Position numbers and translations under genes: made by a program. This document shows positions 2,666-38,196 of a DNA stretch of 64,000 nt, one piece after another; the first letter of the stretch is position 1; every line of letters begins with the position of its first letter. A model generated the notes under the pieces. It did no database searches. It saw nothing but the letters and a program-made list of their open reading frames with translations, and was not told where the DNA came from. The DNA is from TPA_inf: Saccharomyces (lineage: Eukaryota): positions 448,001 through 512,000 of the forward strand of contig BK006943.2 of the NCBI GenBank assembly GCA_000146045.2, written 5' to 3'.

Positions 2666-3019
2666 ATAAAACAAGGAATAATTTCCACATAGATATGCAA
2701 TTAAGTTTTATATGTAAAAGTGAGCATTCATCGTTCAGCTCAAAATACGTTTCTTGTCACAGCTGGTAGAAAAACTATGAGCGTTTTTTCTTACCCGCAG
2801 TCGGAGAAAAATTTTTTCTTCGAAGAGGCGAAAAAGAGAAGAAGAGAAAGCACAAATCTGATGAAATAGTAGTATAAAATCGCATTTACAAATTTTCAAC
2901 CATTGTTTATTTCCTAGGTCATTAAAGAGTAAAGTGCAATCTGTTTACTAATCAGTTTTTGTCTTCATATTTTTGTGTCTTTTCTGCTGCCTCACGCACC
3001 TTCTATAATACACCAAATA

Positions 3020-3934
3020 ATGTCCACTTCTCATTGCAGATTTTATGAAAACAAATACCCAGAAATTGACGATATCGTCATGGTTAACGTCCAGCAGATT
3101 GCTGAAATGGGTGCTTATGTTAAATTGTTAGAATATGACAACATTGAAGGTATGATTCTACTAAGTGAATTGTCCCGTAGACGTATTAGGTCAATCCAAA
3201 AATTAATTCGTGTTGGTAAAAATGATGTCGCCGTTGTTCTTCGTGTCGACAAAGAAAAAGGTTATATTGATTTGTCCAAACGTCGTGTTTCTTCTGAAGA
3301 TATCATTAAATGTGAAGAAAAATACCAAAAATCTAAGACTGTTCATTCCATTTTAAGATACTGTGCCGAAAAATTCCAAATCCCTTTGGAAGAACTATAT
3401 AAGACCATTGCTTGGCCATTAAGTCGAAAATTTGGTCACGCTTACGAAGCTTTCAAACTATCCATCATTGACGAAACTGTTTGGGAAGGTATTGAACCGC
3501 CATCAAAAGATGTTTTAGATGAATTAAAGAACTATATCTCCAAGAGATTAACACCACAAGCTGTAAAGATTAGAGCCGATGTTGAAGTGTCTTGTTTTAG
3601 TTACGAAGGTATCGATGCCATTAAAGACGCATTAAAATCAGCTGAAGACATGTCCACAGAACAAATGCAAGTTAAAGTTAAATTAGTCGCCGCCCCATTA
3701 TATGTTTTGACCACCCAAGCCTTGGATAAGCAAAAAGGTATTGAACAACTGGAAAGCGCTATTGAAAAAATTACAGAGGTTATTACAAAATACGGCGGTG
3801 TTTGCAACATTACCATGCCACCAAAGGCTGTCACTGCTACTGAAGACGCTGAGTTACAAGCTCTATTAGAAAGCAAAGAATTAGATAATAGATCTGACTC
3901 TGAAGACGATGAGGATGAGTCAGACGACGAGTAA
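3020..3934 (+). CDS. SUI2: Translation initiation factor eIF2 alpha subunit, 304 aa.
   Basis: The ORF at 2975..3934 is open from residue 1, but the true start is the Met at residue 16 (MSTSHCRFYENKYPEIDD…). The product has an S1 domain, the regulatory Ser51 context (LSELSRRRIRS) and an acidic C-terminus. Confidence 0.9.
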   Translation: MSTSHCRFYENKYPEIDDIVMVNVQQIAEMGAYVKLLEYDNIEGMILLSELSRRRIRSIQKLIRVGKNDVAVVLRVDKEKGYIDLSKRRVSSEDIIKCEEKYQKSKTVHSILRYCAEKFQIPLEELYKTIAWPLSRKFGHAYEAFKLSIIDETVWEGIEPPSKDVLDELKNYISKRLTPQAVKIRADVEVSCFSYEGIDAIKDALKSAEDMSTEQMQVKVKLVAAPLYVLTTQALDKQKGIEQLESAIEKITEVITKYGGVCNITMPPKAVTATEDAELQALLESKELDNRSDSEDDEDESDDE

Positions 3935-4429
3935 TCATTGCCGCGCCTAATTTTTCTAGGTGTTTTCAAGTGTCATACTGTTTTAGAAAATTTTGTATAG
4001 AACAAATACGTATATCCTGCCATATCATATTCTTTGCAATATACACCTTGTACATTTGGCTATTATAAATATTACAATCCATTTAATCATAATCAAAATT
4101 TAATTTCTGTTACCACGGGGTTGTCAGTGGAGCATGCCCTGCCGGTTCTCTATAATTTATCTTTTTCACATGAGATATTTTTACCTCAAAAGGTAGTGAT
4201 GCTGTAATAATATGAGGCTCCCCCCTTTCCTTCGGAATTGCATTTAAATCATTGGGGAACACTAAGACAAGACAAAGGGGCCGTCCACTCATGTGATTTT
4301 CAACAAAACAGATAACATGCGGATACACACTGATATATTTTCAAAGGAAAGTCTGACTGATACTTAAGTGAAGTGGTCCTAGTCGGTGGCTTAGGTGGAC
4401 TACAGTGCAAAGAATAGAATTTTTCAAAC

Positions 4430-23137: not shown

Positions 23138-23671
23138 TTAATTAGATTGAGGGCGTGCGTAGTTTAACGTCTTGCAATGGAAACATGTCCTCTTTTCGAC
23201 ATCATTTTCAAAATCTAAAATGGCTTCTTTCACTTGGGTACCTAAGTCTAACATTTGCAGTTCACTCTCGTGGACCACTTGGCGACAATGAGAACAGTAC
23301 CACCTTATCTTATCGTTTTCTCCCCCAGGCCTATCTTGTTCCACAACAATACCCACAGTATCAGCAAACCGAACAGGACTGTGAGGAACATTTCCTGGCA
23401 ATAAATATGAATCGCCTTCATTGATGATGATATCAATGAACTTTGGTTCAGCGTCTGTCTCATCCACAACCTTTAAAAGCATAGATCCTTTTTTTTGATA
23501 GAACCATTCGGGAGTTGGATTGATGTGATAACCGGTTCTTTCATTAGGCCCACCGACAATCATCACAGTGAATCCCCCTTTATGTAAGCAATAATTATTC
23601 ACCGGTGGTTTCAAAAGGCCTTCGTTCTCCTTCAACCATTTGTCGATATTAATTGGTGTAGTATTAAACAT
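23138..23671 (-). CDS. BNA1: 3-hydroxyanthranilate 3,4-dioxygenase (cupin) of NAD biosynthesis, 177 aa.
   Basis: Full ORF with a cupin fold. The product matches BNA1 (YJR025C). Confidence 0.9.
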
Positions 23672-24158: not shown

Positions 24159-24462
24159 CTAGTTAGATTGCCAAGATGTGTTAAAAGGCAAGATTAACTT
24201 ATGAACATGATCTACAACGTCCTGGTTTTTAAATTCGAGTAAATACGCCTCCTTTTTATCTGTGAATGACAGTCCTGTTCTCCCAAGTCTTTTTACATCA
24301 TGGAGACGGGAGTTATACTCTCTCGGGTACAAGGTTCCTTCAGCATCAGAACAGATCACAAACTTTATCGCAACAACAATTCCTTTATATTCCTGGGAAA
24401 ATATGTCGGTATAGCCTACTCGAGACGGCTTCCAAACATCAGCTTTCGTTTTAACATGTTGC
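24159..24462 (-). pseudogene. Orphaned 3' fragment (about 101 codons plus a stop) of YJR030C, severed from the gene by the Ty1 array.
   Basis: If the Ty array is removed and one GTTGC copy kept, the YJR030C frame (…SVKVRQ) continues as HVKTKADVWKPSRVGYTDIF…WQSN* with no frameshift. The 111-aa ORF at 24159..24494 is this fragment plus 4 LTR-encoded codons. Confidence 0.6.
24458..24462. repeat. Left copy of the 5-bp target-site duplication GTTGC.
   Basis: GTTGC immediately precedes the LTR at 24463. An identical GTTGC follows the LTR at 35972. Confidence 0.8.
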
Positions 24463-24800
24463 TGTTGGAATAAAAATCCACTATCGTCTATCAACTAATA
24501 GTTATATTATCAATATATTATCATATACGGTGTTAAGATGATGACATAAGTTATGAGAAGCTGTCATCGAAGTTAGAGGAAGCTGAAACGCAAGGATTGA
24601 TAATGTAATAGGATCAATGAATATAAACATATAAAACGGAATGAGGAATAATCGTAATATTAGTATGTAGAAATATAGATTCCATTTTGAGGATTCCTAT
24701 ATCCTCGAGGAGAACTTCTAGTATATTCTGTATACCTAATATTATAGCCTTTATCAACAATGGAATCCCAACAATTATCTCAACATTCACATATTTCTCA
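24463..24800 (+). repeat. Ty1 LTR (delta), 338 bp, type 'A' (TGTTGGAATAAAAATCCACTATCGTC…).
   Basis: It carries the TGTTGG and TCTCA termini and contains the TYA ATG at 24760. It appears identical by eye to the LTR at 35635..35972. Confidence 0.9.
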
Positions 24801-26082
24801 TGGTAGCGCCTGTGCTTCGGTTACTTCTAAGGAAGTCCACACAAATCAAGATCCGTTAGACGTTTCAGCTTCCAAAACAGAAGAATGTGAGAAGGCTTCC
24901 ACTAAGGCTAACTCTCAACAGACAACAACACCTGCTTCATCAGCTGTTCCAGAGAACCCCCATCATGCCTCTCCTCAACCTGCTTCAGTACCACCTCCAC
25001 AGAATGGGCCGTACCCACAGCAGTGCATGATGACCCAAAACCAAGCCAATCCATCTGGTTGGTCATTTTACGGACACCCATCTATGATTCCGTATACACC
25101 TTATCAAATGTCGCCTATGTACTTTCCACCTGGGCCACAATCACAGTTTCCGCAGTATCCATCATCAGTTGGAACGCCTCTGAGCACTCCATCACCTGAG
25201 TCAGGTAATACATTTACTGATTCATCCTCAGCGGACTCTGATATGACATCCACTAAAAAATATGTCAGACCACCACCAATGTTAACCTCACCTAATGACT
25301 TTCCAAATTGGGTTAAAACATACATCAAATTTTTACAAAACTCGAATCTCGGTGGTATTATTCCGACAGTAAACGGAAAACCCGTACGTCAGATCACTGA
25401 TGATGAACTCACCTTCTTGTATAACACTTTTCAAATATTTGCTCCCTCTCAATTCCTACCTACCTGGGTCAAAGACATCCTATCCGTTGATTATACGGAT
25501 ATCATGAAAATTCTTTCCAAAAGTATTGAAAAAATGCAATCTGATACCCAAGAGGCAAACGACATTGTGACCCTGGCAAATTTGCAATATAATGGCAGTA
25601 CACCTGCAGATGCATTTGAAACAAAAGTCACAAACATTATCGACAGACTGAACAATAATGGCATTCATATCAATAACAAGGTCGCATGCCAATTAATTAT
25701 GAGAGGTCTATCTGGCGAATATAAATTTTTACGCTACACACGTCATCGACATCTAAATATGACAGTCGCTGAACTGTTCTTAGATATCCATGCTATTTAT
25801 GAAGAACAACAGGGATCGAGAAACAGCAAACCTAATTACAGGAGAAATCTGAGTGATGAGAAGAATGATTCTCGCAGCTATACGAATACAACCAAACCCA
25901 AAGTTATAGCTCGGAATCCTCAAAAAACAAATAATTCGAAATCGAAAACAGCCAGGGCTCACAATGTATCCACATCTAATAACTCTCCCAGCACGGACAA
26001 CGATTCCATCAGTAAATCAACTACTGAACCGATTCAATTGAACAATAAGCACGACCTTCACCTTAGGCCAGGAACTTACTGA
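24760..26082 (+). CDS. TYA1: Ty1 Gag (TYA), 440 aa.
   Basis: [22 protein letters not shown]… canonical Ty1 Gag. The ATG lies inside the 5' LTR. Confidence 0.95.
26062..26068 (+). other. Ty1 +1 programmed ribosomal frameshift heptamer CUU-AGG-C.
   Basis: Exact CTTAGGC. CTT and AGG are Gag codons 435 and 436, and GGC at 26066..26068 is in frame with the TYB ORF. Confidence 0.9.
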
Positions 26083-29000
26083 ATCTACGGTAAATCACAC
26101 TAATCATTCTGATGATGAACTCCCTGGACACCTCCTTCTCGATTCAGGAGCATCACGAACCCTTATAAGATCTGCTCATCACATACACTCAGCATCATCT
26201 AATCCTGACATAAACGTAGTTGATGCTCAAAAAAGAAATATACCAATTAACGCTATTGGTGACCTACAATTTCACTTCCAGGACAACACCAAAACATCAA
26301 TAAAGGTATTGCACACTCCTAACATAGCCTATGACTTACTCAGTTTGAATGAATTGGCTGCAGTAGATATCACAGCATGCTTTACCAAAAACGTCTTAGA
26401 ACGATCTGACGGCACTGTACTTGCACCTATCGTACAATATGGAGACTTTTACTGGGTATCTAAAAGGTACTTGCTTCCATCAAATATCTCCGTACCCACC
26501 ATCAATAATGTCCATACAAGTGAAAGTACACGCAAATATCCTTATCCTTTCATTCATCGAATGCTTGCGCATGCCAATGCACAGACAATTCGATACTCAC
26601 TTAAAAATAACACCATCACGTATTTTAACGAATCAGATGTCGACTGGTCTAGTGCTATTGACTATCAATGTCCTGATTGTTTAATCGGCAAAAGCACCAA
26701 ACACAGACATATCAAAGGTTCACGACTAAAATACCAAAATTCATACGAACCCTTTCAATACCTACATACTGACATATTTGGTCCAGTTCACAACCTACCA
26801 AAAAGTGCACCATCCTATTTCATCTCATTTACTGATGAGACAACAAAATTCCGTTGGGTTTATCCATTACACGACCGTCGCGAGGACTCTATCCTCGATG
26901 TTTTTACTACGATACTAGCTTTTATTAAGAACCAGTTTCAGGCCAGTGTCTTGGTTATACAAATGGACCGTGGTTCTGAGTATACTAACAGAACTCTCCA
27001 TAAATTCCTTGAAAAAAATGGTATAACTCCATGCTATACAACCACAGCGGATTCCCGAGCACATGGAGTCGCTGAACGGCTCAACCGTACCTTATTAGAT
27101 GACTGCCGTACTCAACTGCAATGTAGTGGTTTACCGAACCATTTATGGTTCTCTGCAATCGAATTTTCTACTATTGTGAGAAATTCACTAGCTTCACCTA
27201 AAAGCAAAAAATCTGCAAGACAACATGCTGGCTTGGCAGGACTTGATATCAGTACTTTGTTACCTTTCGGTCAACCTGTTATCGTCAATGATCACAACCC
27301 TAACTCCAAAATACATCCTCGTGGCATCCCAGGTTACGCTCTACATCCGTCTCGAAACTCTTATGGATATATCATCTATCTTCCATCCTTAAAGAAGACA
27401 GTAGATACAACTAACTATGTTATTCTTCAGGGCAAGGAATCCAGATTAGATCAATTCAATTACGACGCACTCACTTTCGATGAAGACTTAAACCGTTTAA
27501 CTGCTTCATATCAATCGTTCATTGCGTCAAATGAGATCCAAGAATCCAATGATCTTAACATAGAATCTGACCATGACTTCCAATCTGACATTGAACTACA
27601 TCCTGAGCAACCGAGAAATGTCCTTTCAAAAGCTGTGAGTCCAACCGATTCCACACCTCCGTCAACTCATACTGAAGATTCGAAACGTGTTTCTAAAACC
27701 AATATTCGCGCACCCAGAGAAGTTGACCCCAACATATCTGAATCTAATATTCTTCCATCAAAGAAGAGATCTAGCACCCCCCAAATTTCCAATATCGAGA
27801 GTACCGGTTCGGGTGGTATGCATAAATTAAATGTTCCTTTACTTGCTCCCATGTCCCAATCTAACACACATGAGTCGTCGCACGCCAGTAAATCTAAAGA
27901 TTTCAGACACTCAGACTCGTACAGTGAAAATGAGACTAATCATACAAACGTACCAATATCCAGTACGGGTGGTACCAACAACAAAACTGTTCCGCAGATA
28001 AGTGACCAAGAGACTGAGAAAAGGATTATACACCGTTCACCTTCAATCGATGCTTCTCCACCGGAAAATAATTCATCGCACAATATTGTTCCTATCAAAA
28101 CGCCAACTACTGTTTCTGAACAGAATACCGAGGAATCTATCATCGCTGATCTCCCACTCCCTGATCTACCTCCAGAATCTCCTACCGAATTCCCTGACCC
28201 ATTTAAAGAACTCCCACCGATAAATTCTCATCAAACTAATTCCAGTTTGGGTGGTATTGGTGACTCTAATGCCTATACTACTATCAACAGTAAGAAAAGA
28301 TCATTAGAAGATAATGAAACTGAAATTAAGGTATCACGAGACACATGGAATACTAAGAATATGCGTAGTTTAGAACCTCCGAGATCGAAGAAACGAATTC
28401 ACCTGATTGCAGCTGTAAAAGCAGTAAAATCAATCAAACCAATACGGACAACCTTACGATACGATGAGGCAATCACCTATAATAAAGATATTAAAGAAAA
28501 AGAAAAATATATCGAGGCATACCACAAAGAAGTCAATCAACTGTTGAAGATGAAAACTTGGGACACTGACGAATATTATGACAGAAAAGAAATAGACCCT
28601 AAAAGAGTAATAAACTCAATGTTTATCTTCAACAAGAAACGTGACGGTACTCATAAAGCTAGATTTGTTGCAAGAGGTGACATTCAGCATCCTGATACGT
28701 ACGATACAGGTATGCAATCCAACACTGTACATCATTATGCGTTGATGACATCCCTGTCACTTGCATTAGACAATAACTACTATATTACACAATTAGACAT
28801 ATCTTCGGCATATTTGTATGCAGACATCAAAGAAGAATTATACATAAGACCTCCACCACATTTAGGAATGAATGATAAGTTGATACGTTTGAAGAAATCA
28901 CATTATGGATTGAAACAAAGTGGAGCGAACTGGTACGAAACTATCAAATCATACCTGATAAAACAGTGTGGTATGGAAGAAGTTCGTGGATGGTCATGCG

Positions 29001-30028
29001 TATTTAAGAATAGTCAAGTAACAATTTGCTTATTCGTTGATGATATGATATTGTTCAGCAAAGACTTAAATGCAAATAAGAAAATCATAACAACACTCAA
29101 GAAACAATACGATACAAAGATAATAAATCTGGGTGAAAGTGATAACGAAATTCAGTACGACATACTTGGCTTAGAAATCAAATATCAAAGAGGTAAATAC
29201 ATGAAATTAGGTATGGAAAACTCATTAACTGAGAAAATACCCAAATTAAACGTACCTTTGAATCCAAAAGGAAGAAAACTTAGCGCTCCAGGTCAACCAG
29301 GTCTTTATATAGACCAGGATGAACTAGAAATAGATGAAGATGAATACAAAGAGAAGGTACATGAAATGCAAAAGTTGATTGGTCTAGCTTCATATGTTGG
29401 ATATAAATTTAGATTTGACTTACTATACTACATCAACACACTTGCTCAACATATACTATTCCCCTCTAGGCAAGTTTTAGACATGACATATGAGTTAATA
29501 CAATTCATGTGGGACACTAGAGATAAACAACTGATATGGCACAAAAACAAACCTACCGAGCCAGATAATAAACTAGTCGCAATAAGCGATGCTTCATATG
29601 GTAACCAACCATATTACAAGTCACAAATTGGTAACATTTTCCTACTCAACGGAAAAGTGATTGGAGGAAAGTCGACAAAGGCTTCATTAACATGTACTTC
29701 AACTACGGAAGCAGAAATACACGCGATAAGTGAATCTGTCCCATTATTAAATAATCTAAGTTACCTGATACAAGAACTTAACAAGAAACCAATTATTAAA
29801 GGCTTACTTACTGATAGTAGATCAACGATCAGTATAATTAAGTCTACAAATGAAGAGAAATTTAGAAACAGATTTTTTGGCACAAAGGCAATGAGACTTA
29901 GAGATGAAGTATCAGGTAATAATTTATACGTATACTACATCGAGACCAAGAAGAACATTGCTGATGTGATGACAAAACCTCTTCCGATAAAAACATTTAA
30001 ACTATTAACTAACAAATGGATTCATTAG
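26066..30028 (+). CDS. TYB1: Ty1 Pol (TYB) reading frame encoding protease, integrase and reverse transcriptase/RNase H. It is expressed as Gag-Pol join(24760..26064,26066..30028), 1755 aa.
   Basis: The frame is open from the frameshift site to 30028. Integrase HHCC and DD35E motifs and the RT YVDDM motif (FVDDMILFS) are present. Confidence 0.9.
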
Positions 30029-30050
30029 ATCTATTACATTATGGGTGGTA

Positions 30051-30382
30051 TGTTGGAATAGAAATCAACTATCATCTACTAACTAGTATTTACATTACTA
30101 GTATATTATCATATACGGTGTTAGAAGATGACGCAAATGATGAGAAATAGTCATCTAAATTAGTGGAAGCTGAAACGCAAGGATTGATAATGTAATAGGA
30201 TCAATGAATATAAACATATAAAATGATGATAATAATATTTATAGAATTGTGTAGAATTGCAGATTCCCTTTTATGGATTCCTAAATCCTTGAGGAGAACT
30301 TCTAGTATATTCTGTATACCTAATATTATAGCCTTTATCAACAATGGAATCCCAACAATTATCTCAACATTCACATATTTCT
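30051..30382 (+). repeat. Shared central Ty1 LTR, 332 bp, type 'B' (TGTTGGAATAGAAATCAACTATCATCTACTAAC…).
   Basis: Its U3 region differs from the two outer LTRs at many positions. The R/U5 end is identical. Confidence 0.9.
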
Positions 30383-31666
30383 CATGGTAGCGCCTGTGCT
30401 TCGGTTACTTCTAAGGAAGTCCACACAAATCAAGATCCGTTAGACGTTTCAGCTTCCAAAACAGAAGAATGTGAGAAGGCTTCCACTAAGGCTAACTCTC
30501 AACAGACAACAACACCTGCTTCATCAGCTGTTCCAGAGAACCCCCATCATGCCTCTCCTCAAACTGCTCAGTCACATTCACCACAGAATGGGCCGTACCC
30601 ACAGCAGTGCATGATGACCCAAAACCAAGCCAATCCATCTGGTTGGTCATTTTACGGACACCCATCTATGATTCCGTATACACCTTATCAAATGTCGCCT
30701 ATGTACTTTCCACCTGGGCCACAATCACAGTTTCCGCAGTATCCATCATCAGTTGGAACGCCTCTGAGCACTCCATCACCTGAGTCAGGTAATACATTTA
30801 CTGATTCATCCTCAGCGGACTCTGATATGACATCCACTAAAAAATATGTCAGACCACCACCAATGTTAACCTCACCTAATGACTTTCCAAATTGGGTTAA
30901 AACATACATCAAATTTTTACAAAACTCGAATCTCGGTGGTATTATTCCGACAGTAAACGGAAAACCCGTACGTCAGATCACTGATGATGAACTCACCTTC
31001 TTGTATAACACTTTTCAAATATTTGCTCCCTCTCAATTCCTACCTACCTGGGTCAAAGACATCCTATCCGTTGATTATACGGATATCATGAAAATTCTTT
31101 CCAAAAGTATTGAAAAAATGCAATCTGATACCCAAGAGGCAAACGACATTGTGACCCTGGCAAATTTGCAATATAATGGCAGTACACCTGCAGATGCATT
31201 TGAAACAAAAGTCACAAACATTATCGACAGACTGAACAATAATGGCATTCATATCAATAACAAGGTCGCATGCCAATTAATTATGAGAGGTCTATCTGGC
31301 GAATATAAATTTTTACGCTACACACGTCATCGACATCTAAATATGACAGTCGCTGAACTGTTCTTAGATATCCATGCTATTTATGAAGAACAACAGGGAT
31401 CGAGAAACAGTAAACCTAATTACAGGAGAAATCCGAGTGATGAGAAGAATGATTCTCGCAGCTATACGAATACAACCAAACCCAAAGTTATAGCTCGGAA
31501 TCCTCAAAAAACAAATAATTCGAAATCGAAAACAGCCAGGGCTCACAATGTATCCACATCTAATAACTCTCCCAGCACGGACAACGATTCCATCAGTAAA
31601 TCAACTACTGAACCGATTCAATTGAACAATAAGCACGACCTTCATCTTAGGCCAGAAACTTACTGA
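30344..31666 (+). CDS. TYA1: Ty1 Gag (TYA), copy 2, 440 aa.
   Basis: Differs from copy 1 at a few residues, for example …[14 protein letters not shown]… versus …[14 protein letters not shown]…. Confidence 0.95.
31646..31652 (+). other. Ty1 +1 frameshift heptamer CUU-AGG-C, copy 2.
   Basis: Exact CTTAGGC in the Gag frame. Confidence 0.9.
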
Positions 31667-34600
31667 ATCTACAGTAAATCATACTAATCATTCTGATGAT
31701 GAACTCCCTGGACACCTCCTTCTCGATTCAGGAGCATCACGAACCCTTATAAGATCTGCTCATCACATACACTCAGCATCATCTAATCCTGACATAAACG
31801 TAGTTGATGCTCAAAAAAGAAATATACCAATTAACGCTATTGGTGACCTACAATTTCACTTCCAGGACAACACCAAAACATCAATAAAGGTATTGCACAC
31901 TCCTAACATAGCCTATGACTTACTCAGTTTGAATGAATTGGCTGCAGTAGATATCACAGCATGCTTTACCAAAAACGTCTTAGAACGGTCTGACGGCACT
32001 GTACTTGCACCTATCGTAAAATATGGAGACTTTTACTGGGTATCTAAAAAGTACTTGCTTCCATCAAATATCTCCGTACCCACCATCAATAATGTCCATA
32101 CAAGTGAAAGTACACGCAAATATCCTTATCCTTTCATTCATCGAATGCTTGCGCATGCCAATGCACAGACAATTCGATACTCACTTAAAAATAACACCAT
32201 CACGTATTTTAACGAATCAGATGTCGACTGGTCTAGTGCTATTGACTATCAATGTCCTGATTGTTTAATCGGCAAAAGCACCAAACACAGACATATCAAA
32301 GGTTCACGACTAAAATACCAAAATTCATACGAACCCTTTCAATACCTACATACTGACATATTTGGTCCAGTTCACAACCTACCAAAAAGTGCACCATCCT
32401 ATTTCATCTCATTTACTGATGAGACAACAAAATTCCGTTGGGTTTATCCATTACACGACCGTCGCGAGGACTCTATCCTCGATGTTTTTACTACGATACT
32501 AGCTTTTATTAAGAACCAGTTTCAGGCCAGTGTCTTGGTTATACAAATGGACCGTGGTTCTGAGTATACTAACAGAACTCTCCATAAATTCCTTGAAAAA
32601 AATGGTATAACTCCATGCTATACAACCACAGCGGATTCCCGAGCACATGGAGTCGCTGAACGGCTCAACCGTACCTTATTAGATGACTGCCGTACTCAAC
32701 TGCAATGTAGTGGTTTACCGAACCATTTATGGTTCTCTGCAATCGAATTTTCTACTATTGTGAGAAATTCACTAGCTTCACCTAAAAGCAAAAAATCTGC
32801 AAGACAACATGCTGGCTTGGCAGGACTTGATATCAGTACTTTGTTACCTTTCGGTCAACCTGTTATCGTCAATGATCACAACCCTAACTCCAAAATACAT
32901 CCTCGTGGCATCCCAGGCTACGCTCTACATCCGTCTCGAAACTCTTATGGATATATCATCTATCTTCCATCCTTAAAGAAGACAGTAGATACAACTAACT
33001 ATGTTATTCTTCAGGGCAAGGAATCCAGATTAGATCAATTCAATTACGACGCACTCACTTTCGATGAAGACTTAAACCGTTTAACTGCTTCATATCAATC
33101 GTTCATTGCGTCAAATGAGATCCAACAATCCGATGATCTTAACATAGAATCTGACCATGACTTCCAATCTGACATCGAACTACATCCTGAGCAACCGAGA
33201 AATGTCCTTTCAAAAGCTGTGAGTCCAACCGATTCCACACCTCCGTCAACTCATACTGAAGATTCGAAACGTGTTTCTAAAACCAATATTCGCGCACCCA
33301 GAGAAGTTGACCCCAACATATCTGAATCTAATATTCTTCCATCAAAGAAGAGATCTAGCACCCCCCAAATTTCCAATATCGAGAGTACCGGTTCGGGTGG
33401 TATGCATAAATTAAATGTTCCTTTACTTGCTCCCATGTCCCAATCTAACACACATGAGTCGTCGCACGCCAGTAAATCTAAAGATTTCAGACACTCAGAC
33501 TCGTACAGTGAAAATGAGACTAATCATACAAACGTACCAATATCCAGTACGGGTGGTACCAACAACAAAACTGTTCCGCAGATAAGTGACCAAGAGACTG
33601 AGAAAAGGATTATACACCGTTCACCTTCAATCGATGCTTCTCCACCGGAAAATAATTCATCGCACAATATTGTTCCTATCAAAACGCCAACTACTGTTTC
33701 TGAACAGAATACCGAGGAATCTATCATCGCTGATCTCCCACTCCCTGATCTACCTCCAGAATCTCCTACCGAATTCCCTGACCCATTTAAAGAACTCCCA
33801 CCGATCAATTCTCGTCAAACTAATTCCAGTTTGGGTGGTATTGGTGACTCTAATGCCTATACTACTATCAACAGTAAGAAAAGATCATTAGAAGATAATG
33901 AAACTGAAATTAAGGTATCACGAGACACATGGAATACTAAGAATATGCGTAGTTTAGAACCTCCGAGATCGAAGAAACGAATTCACCTGATTGCAGCTGT
34001 AAAAGCAGTAAAATCAATCAAACCAATACGGACAACCTTACGATACGATGAGGCAATCACCTATAATAAAGATATTAAAGAAAAAGAAAAATATATCGAG
34101 GCATACCACAAAGAAGTCAATCAACTGTTGAAGATGAAAACTTGGGACACTGACGAATATTATGACAGAAAAGAAATAGACCCTAAAAGAGTAATAAACT
34201 CAATGTTTATCTTCAACAAGAAACGTGACGGTACTCATAAAGCTAGATTTGTTGCAAGAGGTGATATTCAGCATCCTGACACTTACGACTCAGGCATGCA
34301 ATCCAATACCGTACATCACTATGCATTAATGACATCCCTGTCACTTGCATTAGACAATAACTACTATATTACACAATTAGACATATCTTCGGCATATTTG
34401 TATGCAGACATCAAAGAAGAATTATACATAAGACCTCCACCACATTTAGGAATGAATGATAAGTTGATACGTTTGAAGAAATCACTTTATGGATTGAAAC
34501 AAAGTGGAGCGAACTGGTACGAAACTATCAAATCATACCTGATACAACAATGTGGTATGGAAGAAGTTCGTGGATGGTCATGCGTATTTAAAAACAGTCA

Positions 34601-35612
34601 AGTGACAATTTGTTTATTCGTAGATGATATGGTATTGTTTAGCAAAAATCTAAATTCAAACAAAAGAATTATAGAGAAGCTTAAGATGCAATACGACACC
34701 AAGATTATAAATCTAGGCGAAAGTGATGAGGAAATTCAATATGACATTCTTGGCTTGGAAATCAAATACCAAAGAGGTAAATACATGAAATTGGGTATGG
34801 AAAACTCATTAACTGAAAAAATACCCAAACTAAACGTACCTTTAAACCCAAAAGGAAGGAAACTTAGTGCTCCAGGTCAACCAGGTCTATATATAGACCA
34901 GCAAGAACTAGAGCTAGAAGAAGATGATTACAAAATGAAGGTACATGAAATGCAAAAGCTGATAGGTCTAGCATCATATGTTGGATATAAATTTAGATTT
35001 GACCTATTATACTACATCAACACACTTGCACAACATATACTATTTCCGTCCAAGCAAGTGTTAGATATGACATATGAATTGATACAGTTCATATGGAATA
35101 CGAGAGATAAGCAATTAATATGGCACAAAAGCAAACCTGTTAAGCCAACAAATAAATTAGTTGTTATAAGCGATGCCTCGTATGGCAACCAACCGTATTA
35201 TAAATCACAAATTGGCAACATATATTTACTTAATGGAAAGGTAATTGGAGGAAAGTCCACCAAGGCTTCATTAACATGTACTTCAACTACGGAAGCAGAA
35301 ATACACGCGATAAGTGAATCTGTCCCATTATTAAATAATCTAAGTTACCTGATACAAGAACTTGACAAGAAACCAATTACCAAAGGATTACTAACCGACA
35401 GTAAATCTACAATCAGTATAATTATATCCAATAATGAAGAGAAATTTAGGAACAGATTTTTTGGTACTAAAGCAATGAGATTGAGAGATGAAGTATCAGG
35501 AAATCATCTGCACGTATGCTATATCGAAACCAAAAAGAATATTGCAGACGTAATGACCAAACCTCTTCCGATAAAAACATTCAAACTATTAACAAACAAA
35601 TGGATTCATTAG
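31650..35612 (+). CDS. TYB1: Ty1 Pol (TYB) reading frame, copy 2. Gag-Pol is join(30344..31648,31650..35612).
   Basis: Intact frame. Its amino-acid differences from copy 1 are clustered in the RT/RNase H C-terminal third. Confidence 0.9.
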
Positions 35613-35634
35613 ATCTATTACATTATGGGTGGTA

Positions 35635-35972
35635 TGTTGGAATAAAAATCCACTATCGTCTATCAACTAATAGTTATATTATCAATATATTATCATATAC
35701 GGTGTTAAGATGATGACATAAGTTATGAGAAGCTGTCATCGAAGTTAGAGGAAGCTGAAACGCAAGGATTGATAATGTAATAGGATCAATGAATATAAAC
35801 ATATAAAACGGAATGAGGAATAATCGTAATATTAGTATGTAGAAATATAGATTCCATTTTGAGGATTCCTATATCCTCGAGGAGAACTTCTAGTATATTC
35901 TGTATACCTAATATTATAGCCTTTATCAACAATGGAATCCCAACAATTATCTCAACATTCACATATTTCTCA
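35635..35972 (+). repeat. Ty1 LTR, 338 bp, type 'A', the 3' LTR of copy 2.
   Basis: It is preceded by the polypurine tract TGGGTGGTA and followed by the target-site duplication GTTGC at 35973..35977. Confidence 0.9.
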
Positions 35973-38196
35973 GTTGCCTTACTTTAACAGAAGATAACAG
36001 AAGTGAAGAACTTATATATTCTGATGAGTCTTTCATATTAGCCAATTCTGAATTTTCAGTAGATGATCTAGTAACATTACGACTGAAGCATGAAGACGAA
36101 GATACCGTTGATAAAGTTCCTGTGGTGGTTGAGGGTGAAAGGGATGATGTCTGGCTACTTTGTAACTGATATTGTAACACATTCACCAACTTAGCAGCTT
36201 GCGCACAGCGTATAGACAGCGTGAGATCGTGGAGTGTTCCAAATACACTAGCTTTGAAATCAGAGGAAGGAATCCGAAGTTGAACATCTTGTGCCGTTGA
36301 TCTATTGTACTTCCAGGTGGGTTCCAATTTCACAACCAATTTACACTTCTCCTTTTCGAAGTCTTTATATACAATTAGTAAGGTCTCGTTGTCTCCGGAT
36401 AAAATTAAAGACAAACACAGCATGTCCTTACTCAAAGGCACCCATGACTTGCCGTTCCAAAGGGAAACTTTTACCGAATCGTTTTCGAAATATACTGCTC
36501 CTCCAGATGTGTTTATGCTTAACGGAAACGATACATACGTTTCATCAACGTTATCGTCATGGGGGGTTGCTGATACCGGGGTAACTGATTGTTGATTGCC
36601 TGGCAAACTAAACAATGATCTTGAATGATTTTTGGGAATATCGATAGTTAGATTCTTTTTGTTTTTTGAGAAGATGCTTAGTAAAGATGAAGATTTACGC
36701 CGATAAAGCGTTGGCTTATAGAAATCGATATCTGGATCGAATAAATCTTTATCTCGTTTATCCTTTCCATCTTCAGAAATTATACTCTCAGAATCGTCAA
36801 TTTCAGACGCAACACTCTCTATTAGTTCGGGAGAGACACTCTCCAGGCTGAAAGTTTGAGAAGCTGTTCTAATGTTTTTTAAGGTAGGTGTGTCCATATA
36901 TTTAGGCGAGAGAGGTACTTGAATGCTCTTATCCAATTCAATTAGCTTTTCACAACTTAGGGATTCAATATCTTTCAGAGAGGTGTCAAGATCTGAATCT
37001 TCGCTAACTGTTGCCCTCTCACTCATGATTGACAGTGACTCCTCGTCAGGGTATTCATTAGAGGTCTCTATTAAGGAAGACAGACTTCCCGGCAAAGGAA
37101 TTGATCTATGCAGTGTGCGACCATTGTGTATTGTATCTGATATCTTTACAGAGCTAATAGGCATATCGTCATTTCTTTTAGGAGAAGTATAATCAGGGTT
37201 GTTACTCCTAACATAAACCTGTTGAGAAATTTTACTTCCAGATCGCTTGTATTCTTTTGTAGCTGTTGAGTCGAAAAGCTTTCTAATAACATGTTTCCAA
37301 TACTCTTGCCATTGAATAGGATCTTTGCAAGTTAACCTCAATACAATGCTATTATTTATCGGTACCTTTAGTTTTGCTCCACTATCATCAAGTCTGATGA
37401 GATCAAGATCGCCGGACCTAAATGGTCGAAATAGCAGCGACCTCCCGACATTCATTAAGTCATGGTTTCCTAACGCAAGGGATTGGAACAAGTTATCAAT
37501 GGTTTGTAATGTGTATGGCATTTTTTCAGAAAGAACCTCAAATATAGCTATCTCCCCATTATCTAATTCAAGGATTTCAACTAGTTTATTATTGATCGCC
37601 AACTTCTTTACATCTAGTCTGTAATATGCTCTATTTATAACCTTATTGGAATCGATTGGCGGAAGATTAATCAGGGAAACTTCGCCTGATATAACGTCAC
37701 GAACGCTTCCGTATTTCAGTGAGTTACAGCTTATAAAGTCATAGCAACTTTTAAATTTGTATACAAACGCACTGATTAGGGAGCCTAGTCGTACTTCATT
37801 TGTGACATAGAAAATGTCCCTCAACTTATAATAAACCTTGAATAGTAATACCGCAAAAAGCTTTTGTGAATCCATCCTAAAGTATGACATGTTCGCATCG
37901 AGAAGCAAATGCATACATCCAAATAAAAGATTATGATACAAATCGAGTATTTGCGCATCTTTGAATAAACTCTTGTAAGAATTCACTATGGATTGTGTTA
38001 GAGACATGTCATCATGATTTGCAGCATGCTTTCTCAAAATGCATCTCAAGTAACCGCTAATTTTTCTCATTTCATGACCAACTTTAACCATTGGGTCCAA
38101 GCTCGAACCATGGTACCTGCTATGGGACTCACAGACAACGAGTAATCGTTTTAACAGAGTCTCGAAGCTCGCTTCTTCCTTGTTAAATAATTCCAT
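35959..38196 (-). CDS. YJR030C, an uncharacterised 745-aa protein. Its last 4 codons and stop are supplied by Ty1 LTR sequence.
   Basis: The ORF is open 35959..38208. I prefer the Met at residue 5 (MELFNKEE…), giving 745 aa. Codons from the last C of the GCAAC target-site duplication copy onward (…LRNM*) lie inside the LTR at 35635..35972. Confidence 0.75.
35973..35977. repeat. Right copy of the 5-bp target-site duplication GTTGC.
   Basis: It matches 24458..24462. Confidence 0.8.

Follow-up and report, generated by a model that had tools for sequence, protein, structure and literature searches.

Chromosome X of Saccharomyces cerevisiae S288C carries, within the stretch analyzed here (positions 448,001 to 512,000 of contig BK006943.2; 64,000 bp, hereafter the window, to which all coordinates refer), an 11.5-kb unit of two Ty1 retrotransposons. 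This unit is the annotated tandem YJRWTy1-1/YJRWTy1-2 (YJR026W-YJR029W), which is already known and was called "two tandem Ty1s (YJRWTy1-1 and YJRWTy1-2)" in the literature (PMC3102749). Our analysis indicated that the annotated pair very probably joins two different, intact Ty1 genomes in a heterodimer, which occupies one integrase-made site in the 3′ end of RBH2 and was formed at the complementary DNA (cDNA) stage by recombination between a Ty1/2 hybrid and a canonical Ty1 with A-type long terminal repeats (LTRs). The array contained two distinct parental genomes within a single target-site duplication (TSD), and the ancestral site was found empty in other assemblies. The dimer can be written as A - [Ty1/2 hybrid] - B - [canonical Ty1] - A, where A stands for the two outer LTRs and B for the central one.

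The three LTRs started at 24463, 30051 and 35635, with start-to-start spacings of 5588 and 5584 bp, and all features of the array lay on the forward strand. The two internal regions, each of 5250 bp, were arranged head to tail with exactly one LTR (334 bp) between them, as in a Ty1 tandem array. The internal region of YJRWTy1-1 (Ty1-JR1, JR1 below), a Ty1/2 hybrid, extended over 24801..30050, with the primer-binding site (PBS) at 24801-24810, TYA at 24760-26082, the frameshift site CTTAGGC at 26062, the end of TYB at 30028 and the polypurine tract (PPT) at 30043-30050. The internal region of YJRWTy1-2 (Ty1-JR2, JR2 below), a canonical Ty1, extended over 30385..35634, with TYA at 30344-31666, CTTAGGC at 31646 and the end of TYB at 35612. 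TYA was open over 440 residues in both elements, and both Gag-Pol products were 1755 residues long without an internal stop. The Ty1 family (Pseudoviridae, copia-type LTR retrotransposons) was recognized by TYA and TYB joined through the +1 frameshift heptamer CTTAGGC and by the PBS TGGTAGCGCC directly 3′ of both 5′ LTRs, and matches to the Pfam families TYA, rve and RVT_2 were found on orthologous gene calls. These results bore out the preliminary description, a note made from the sequence alone, which had seen two complete head-to-tail Ty1 elements with open TYA and TYB frames and intact frameshift sites. By exact-sequence look-up, the two TYA products were "Transposon Ty1-JR1 Gag" and "Transposon Ty1-JR2 Gag" of S. 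cerevisiae S288C, and the frameshifted Gag-Pol proteins matched exactly UniProt P47098 (Ty1-JR1) on the left and P47100 (Ty1-JR2) on the right. YJRWTy1-2 is retrotransposition-competent and serves as a his3AI-marked donor (PMC3522557).

The difference between the two parental genomes was most clearly seen in the LTRs. The outer LTRs, the 5′ LTR of YJRWTy1-1 (24463..24800) and the 3′ LTR of YJRWTy1-2 (35635..35972), showed no difference over 338 bp, and each consisted of a canonical Ty1 unique 3′ region (U3, positions 1-244) followed by the repeat and unique 5′ regions (R-U5). The central LTR (30051..30384, 334 bp), which is both the 3′ LTR of JR1 and the 5′ LTR, with the promoter, of JR2, had 45 substitutions and four indel columns relative to the outer LTRs, all of them within LTR positions 11-244 (U3), and was identical to them at positions 245-338. 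Compared with the Ty2 reference LTR, the central LTR had four differences in positions 1-240 and 15 in positions 260-331, where it was the same as Ty1. By this comparison the central LTR is the standard Ty1/2 hybrid LTR, with a Ty2-type U3 joined to a Ty1-type R-U5, and the Ty2-type U3 of about 240 bp is that of the hybrid subfamily. All three had the features of Ty1 LTRs, namely the ends TGTTGG...TCTCA and a length of about 334-338 bp, with GTTGC on either side of the array. The identity of the 338-bp outer LTRs and the distinct U3 of the central one had been described correctly before, but the end of the central LTR had been placed at 30382 with a length of 332 bp; its last letters ...TTTCTCA were found at 30384, and this was the sole error of the preliminary description.

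Relatives of both units were present elsewhere in S288C. LTR A was identical to the TY1-LTR reference of Carr et al. 2012 and to the 5′ LTR of chrVII_i8+, which heads YGRWTy1-1, and LTR B was identical to the 5′ LTR of chrXII_u21+ and also to the 3′ LTR of the YDRWTy1-5 ortholog in CEN.PK. At least three classes of U3 were recognized among the 5′ LTRs of S288C Ty1 (Carr et al. 2012, supplement 7). One is canonical, another is fully Ty2-like (B and a variant resembling Ty2), and in the half-hybrid class Ty2-like sequence gives way to Ty1-like sequence at about position 165 (e.g. chrI_u1-, chrV_i5-, chrXIII_u26+). In the same 5′ LTRs, the U5 variants giving QHSH, QHSP or NYPH at Gag residues 8-11 assorted semi-independently of the U3 class.

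Unequal exchange within a single element cannot produce the A-B-A pattern of the LTRs; another Ty1 genome, distinct from the first, must have taken part. This argument of the preliminary description was upheld, with the addition that the central U3 is of Ty2 type and the second genome is a Ty1/2 hybrid. The internal regions pointed in the same direction. When identities to the Ty1 and Ty2 references (Carr et al. 2012, File S1) were calculated in 100-bp windows, a Ty2-derived mosaic tract was found in JR1 at 29002..30290, running from the reverse transcriptase/RNase H region into the U3 of the central LTR and ending at the LTR breakpoint. Within the tract, the segments 29002-29200, 29302-29700 and 29802-30290 were Ty2-like, and 29202-29300 and 29702-29800 were Ty1-like islands, so that the last 1.05 kb of JR1 alternated between 94-100% identity to Ty2 and 95-97% identity to Ty1. 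JR2 was only 78-88% identical to Ty2 at the equivalents of 29002-29200, 29302-29700 and 29802-30050, where JR1 reached 94-100%, and its 3′ 1.55 kb was about 100% identical to the Ty1 reference. That reference, which serves RepeatMasker-style annotation, has an LTR equal to the outer LTR, about three differences from JR2 in the 3′ 1.55 kb, and the gag patch of JR2 described below. Searches with TYA and with the TYB C-terminus of JR1 gave few representatives of 90% clusters and returned no named Ty2 protein.

JR1 thus combined a Ty2-derived 3′ part of TYB with a Ty1-type gag, as in the Ty1/2 hybrids (Jordan & McDonald 1998/1999; Carr et al. 2012; Bleykasten-Grosshans et al. 2013), with which JR1 and the central LTR share the Ty2 segment of TYB, the Ty2 U3 of about 240 bp and the Ty1 R-U5. 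In S288C, 18 of the 32 elements are such hybrids, in which part of TyB and the 240-bp U3 derive from Ty2 (PMC4022208; PMC3511429). Free hybrids, such as those at the YDRWTy1-5 and YPRCTy1-2 sites of CEN.PK, have the same hybrid LTR at both ends, whereas the 5′ LTR of JR1 was the canonical A because JR1 sits in a dimer; in its place, JR1 is not a simple transposed hybrid copy. Both internal regions had their cognate U3 at the 3′ end, JR1 that of B and JR2 that of A, and the leftmost U3 was the sole non-cognate piece of the array. A cDNA intermediate, which experiments with marked elements recognize by the loss of an intron, is suggested by this cognate arrangement.

Between the internal regions of JR1 and JR2, 178 substitutions were counted, and they were distributed in blocks. 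About 140 of them fell in the last 1.37 kb (from about 28681), 10 in a single 18-bp patch of gag, and about 25 were scattered; at the protein level, 12 differences were found in residues 1-1300 and 33 in residues 1300-1755. The copies had been described as nearly identical in gag, protease and integrase and as differing at many residues in the reverse transcriptase/RNase H part, and the alignment agreed with this. Pairwise alignments of the LTRs and of the internal regions had been proposed as the check on a second donor, and in them neither a central LTR as similar to the outer ones as these are to each other nor a uniform spread of divergence was seen. In the gag patch, JR1 encodes PASVPP (24979..24996) and JR2 encodes TAQSHS (30563-30580), a difference that a compensated +1/-1 frameshift and a few substitutions would seem to explain. 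The JR1 form was the common one, and the JR2 form was also found in S288C Ty1-A and one chromosome XVI copy. In a further patch in pol of JR1 (28681..28744), 11 of 64 bp were substituted, which altered a single amino acid, and the patch was unlike both the Ty1 and the Ty2 references. Among the sampled copies it was common only to the CEN.PK element at the YPRCTy1-2 site, and it resembles a short tract contributed by a third, divergent lineage of Ty1.

The whole array was held within one TSD. GTTGC was read directly at 24458..24462 on the left and at 35973..35977 on the right, only at the outer borders and nowhere inside the array, and at the central LTR the PPT adjoined the left side and the PBS the right side. 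Insertion of one element by integrase into the LTR of another was ruled out by the missing internal TSD. In two independent short-read assemblies (L008 and L009), the uninterrupted site ...TTTTAACATGTTGCCTTACTTTAAC... was present with a single GTTGC. Because this empty allele has only one GTTGC, the duplication is a real integrase footprint and not a 1-in-1024 coincidence, and the claim of one duplication around the 11.5-kb unit was confirmed. The insertion site was in the coding 3′ end of RBH2.

Empty, single and tandem states of the locus, which the preliminary description had suggested looking for in other assemblies, were all represented among the assemblies compared. The empty state was that of L008 and L009. 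The same dimer was found with no substitution in CEN.PK113-7D and GCA_010356925.1 (9.2 kb read from the left and 10 kb from the right); beyond these two, which were the ones compared base by base, a further five to six similar places were reported. In GCA_947370305.1 (CANCNK010000010.1; L005/L018, L005 below), a single 5.9-kb element with A LTRs was present within the same TSD. Up to element position 3130 the alleles of this monomer were those of JR1, and from position 3760 they were those of JR2; its flanks were identical to S288C from about 5 kb on the left through at least 12 kb on the right of the site. It may be a real pop-out derivative of the dimer, an ancestral monomer or a collapsed assembly. 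We rejected it as decisive evidence of an ancestral monomer, since pop-out of a dimer or collapse of the assembly yields the same structure. In the synthetic chromosome X (GCA_033956085.1, CP135956.1; L003), a 34-bp loxPsym site, ATAACTTCGTATAATGTACATTATACGAAGTTAT, lay between two GTTGC copies; the flanks contained hundreds of designed substitutions, and the Ty dimer had been removed by design.

The parental genomes were further traced in other Ty1 copies, for which the comparison set consisted of four S288C Gag-Pol proteins, the DNA of seven CEN.PK113-7D Ty1 elements and the S288C 5′-LTR alignment of Carr et al. 2012. The element that occupies the YPRCTy1-2 site in CEN.PK (XVIb) had B LTRs, the JR2 gag patch and JR2 alleles over nt 1388-2872, with two substitutions in 2.5 kb. 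From nt 3080 it carried JR1 alleles, including the 4219-4282 patch and 138 of the 139 markers of the 3′ block, and it had about 30 substitutions of its own. The switch between the two allele types lay in nt 2872-3080 of XVIb and in 3130-3760 of L005, two intervals without overlap. The Gag of XVIb was the same as that of S288C Ty1-A and of one chromosome XVI copy, and the 5′ LTRs of YARCTy1-1 (chrI_u1-) and of chrXVI_u34-, taken as YPRCTy1-2, had a Ty2-like U3. Two further S288C copies, on chromosome XII and chromosome XIII, encode the same Gag as JR1. These are probably chrXII_u21+ and chrXIII_u26+, the sole QHSH-U5 5′ LTRs listed on those chromosomes, of which the former has a B-type LTR equal to the central LTR and the latter a half-hybrid (C-type) LTR, both with a Ty2-like U3. 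In the sampled set, the JR1 alleles at nt 1388-2004 were found in hybrid-LTR copies only and in none of the four A-type copies. Because its Gag type and these alleles go with hybrid LTRs elsewhere, the left element may be an intact hybrid genome.

As to the route by which the dimer formed, we infer that a hybrid Ty1 genome would have recombined with a canonical A-LTR Ty1 genome at the cDNA stage, and this could have happened in two ways. A hybrid cDNA, as a one-LTR circle or a linear molecule, would have crossed over with a canonical element resident at the site, or the dimer would have been made before integration and then inserted by one integrase event. We rate these two routes about equally. 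The former was the view of the preliminary description, which had proposed a reciprocal mosaic; the second genome in that proposal stood, and the mosaic remained suggestive rather than proven, with XVIb and L005 speaking for it and the Gag and alleles of JR1 against it. In this account, which we consider a plausible one that falls just short of being probable, a single homologous crossover in the internal region would give JR1 the resident 5′ part and the incoming 3′ part, and JR2 the incoming 5′ part and the resident 3′ part. XVIb has the configuration predicted for the incoming element, with B LTRs, JR2 5′ alleles and JR1 3′ alleles, and the other S288C copies with a JR2-like Gag (Ty1-A and the chromosome XVI copy taken as YPRCTy1-2) have LTRs with a Ty2-like U3; the single A...A element of L005, with its JR1 5′ part, JR2 3′ part and same TSD, is the predicted resident. 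Recombination of cDNA with genomic Ty1 is documented in passages of PMC5371812. However, the roughly 30 substitutions of its own imply that XVIb was not the donor, the switch intervals of XVIb and L005 are disjoint, and a monomer with a JR1 5′ and JR2 3′ part would also result from pop-out or assembly collapse, with the L005 flanking haplotype identical to S288C. The restriction of the JR1 nt 1388-2004 alleles to hybrid-LTR copies and the unchanged JR1 Gag in the copies taken as chrXII_u21+ and chrXIII_u26+ also argue against this account. One-step integration of a preformed heterodimeric cDNA of 11.5 kb, with one 5-bp duplication, predicts the same A-B-A pattern and was absent from the reasoning of the preliminary description; we regard it as a credible course to which we give somewhat less than even weight. 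Here the minus strand would reach the 5′ end of the canonical RNA and make a second transfer onto the 3′ R of a co-packaged hybrid RNA, and the plus-strand strong-stop transfer would copy U3(A) to the left end, giving U3(2)-int1-U3(1)-int2-U3(2), that is, A-B-A. The same molecule would arise if cDNAs, such as a hybrid circle and a linear canonical cDNA, recombined outside the chromosome and the resulting dimer then integrated. The array would then be [U3a] + [R-U5-JR1-U3b-R] + [U5-JR2-U3a-R-U5], in which both genomes are complete from R to R with their cognate U3, and every A/B difference does stop at the U3/R boundary, LTR position 244. The 5′ markers and Gag type of JR1 accompany hybrid LTRs elsewhere, possible RNA donors exist among the other S288C elements, some of which begin with an LTR identical to A or to B, heterogeneous Ty1 multimers are known to transpose (Weinstock 1990 and Bryk 2001, cited by PMC5911963, PMC4378997 and PMC5371812), and heterozygous virus-like particles are the accepted source of Ty1/2 hybrids (PMC4022208). 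On the other side, the double transfer has to be assumed, XVIb must be a secondary recombinant, and the L005 monomer must be a secondary deletion. Plain LTR-LTR joining of two linear cDNAs was ruled out as a variant, as it would give B...A instead of A...A outer LTRs.

Two further accounts were also weighed. Unequal sister-chromatid exchange of a canonical element would give A-R-A-R-A, and a later conversion of the left unit and the central U3, templated by a hybrid ectopic copy or cDNA, would complete the pattern. The sites of densest divergence do form a single uninterrupted tract, which begins at about 28681 and takes in the U3 of the central LTR up to about 30290, and cDNA-mediated and ectopic Ty conversion is known from passages of PMC5371812, but two independent rare events would be required, and about 35 more differences lie 5′ of the tract, including the eight-marker block at nt 1388-2004, which is shared with genomic copies and not private. 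Because of these 5′ differences, the conversion tract would need at least 4.4 kb and would have to end exactly at the U3/R borders, which makes this origin improbable. That one Ty1 was wrongly doubled in the reference might be suspected from the monomer in one related assembly (L005), but the units differ at 178 internal sites and in their LTRs, the identical dimer is present in the independent long-read assemblies CEN.PK113-7D and GCA_010356925.1, and the tandem was amplified and Southern-mapped experimentally (PMC3102749). The chance of such an artefact is negligible, and it was ruled out by the independent assemblies and the published mapping. The heterodimer formed at the cDNA stage remained the reading we prefer, and several points weigh against it or against any choice of its route. 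Ty1 copies are reticulate mosaics, so that marker linkage is weak evidence of the route. The predicted incoming (XVIb-like) and resident (L005) configurations both exist, which favors a resident element plus cDNA, and the JR1 5′ alleles and Gag type found with hybrid LTRs elsewhere favor two intact genomes, so that a dimer of two intact genomes fits the data as well as the model of the preliminary description does. Double transfer in Ty1 reverse transcription is itself a supposition, and at the DNA level the sample comprised just seven other Ty1 copies, all of them from CEN.PK, whose long-read assembly has indel noise.

The locus is the one annotated in SGD and GenBank as YJRWTy1-1/-2: Gag, Gag-Pol, BNA1 and RBH2 matched exactly, and no structural difference was seen. 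The preliminary description had recognized neither this annotation nor B as the familiar Ty1/2 hybrid LTR. In the literature searched, no paper was found that sets out how the dimer arose or that its LTRs follow an A-B-A pattern. Both Ty1/2 hybrids and tandem arrays belong to the textbook knowledge of Ty elements. Like the dimer, Ty1 multimeric arrays have head-to-tail units with a single LTR between them, the units can be heterogeneous, and the arrays are bounded by one TSD or recombined into a resident element; such arrays and cDNA recombination with genomic Ty1 are documented by Weinstock 1990, Bryk 2001 and Sharon 1994, as cited in passages of PMC5911963, PMC4378997, PMC5371812 and PMC7524711. 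In contrast to arrays of induced or mutant conditions, the JR1/JR2 dimer is spontaneous and fixed in the laboratory-strain lineage. The arrays of Weinstock et al., Bryk et al. and Sharon et al. reportedly arose under such conditions (pGTy1, sgs1, rrm3, integrase-defective). Other tandems in the S288C background, a Ty2-Ty1 near 999 kb of chromosome IV and YMLWTy1-1A/B, are likewise adjacent Ty elements that share or abut LTRs, but their partners and sites differ (PMC3102749, PMC7055915, PMC4022208), and tandem Ty elements with a common internal LTR are a routine case of annotation (PMC7055915).

The genes on both sides of the array were identified by exact look-up as BNA1/YJR025C (23138..23671, reverse strand) and RBH2/YJR030C (ORF 35962..38196, gene 35959..38196, reverse strand) of S288C. 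The latter was cut short by the Ty insertion, and the last four residues (LRNM) and the stop codon of its 745-residue S288C open reading frame (ORF) came from the TSD/LTR junction. In-silico removal of the Ty array gave an RBH2 ORF of 840 residues ending at 24159, and other strains, including L008 and L009, encode 840 residues; the reference gene model of RBH2/YJR030C is a Ty-truncated allele, with 745 residues against 840 in empty-site strains. No tRNA gene was found by ARAGORN in the whole 64-kb window. Ty1 typically inserts within about 1 kb upstream of a gene transcribed by RNA polymerase III (Pol III), and the present insertion, within a coding region transcribed by RNA polymerase II and far from any Pol III gene, was an atypical target choice. 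This does not affect the assignment to Ty1, since proximity to Pol III genes is a preference and not a defining or obligatory feature.

The Ty1/2 hybrids, the tandem Ty arrays and the YJRWTy1-1/-2 locus have all been published, and by these comparisons the present result is ordinary for the field, with little importance except as housekeeping. Annotation of the locus dates from the chromosome X sequence, and the locus has been used as the YJRWTy1-2-his3AI donor and as a hotspot of Ty-mediated rearrangement. The LTR and 3′ end of the commonly used Ty1 reference are essentially JR2-like, and Ty1-H3 is presumably JR2-like too. A more specific origin, on which we are doubtful, is that the dimer is the fossil of a single aberrant reverse transcription in a heterozygous virus-like particle, in which two minus-strand R-to-R transfers over co-packaged hybrid and canonical RNAs would have made an 11.5-kb product that was integrated once. 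If this were true, the reference genome would keep a natural, uninduced record of two co-packaged Ty1 RNAs, with candidate donors like chrXII_u21+ and YGRWTy1-1. From LTR biology, JR1 would be transcribed from a canonical U3 and end in the hybrid LTR, giving B-JR1-B progeny, and JR2 would be transcribed from a Ty2-type U3 and end in A, giving A-JR2-A progeny. This promoter swap matters where YJRWTy1-2 is made to stand for canonical Ty1 in work on expression or mobility.

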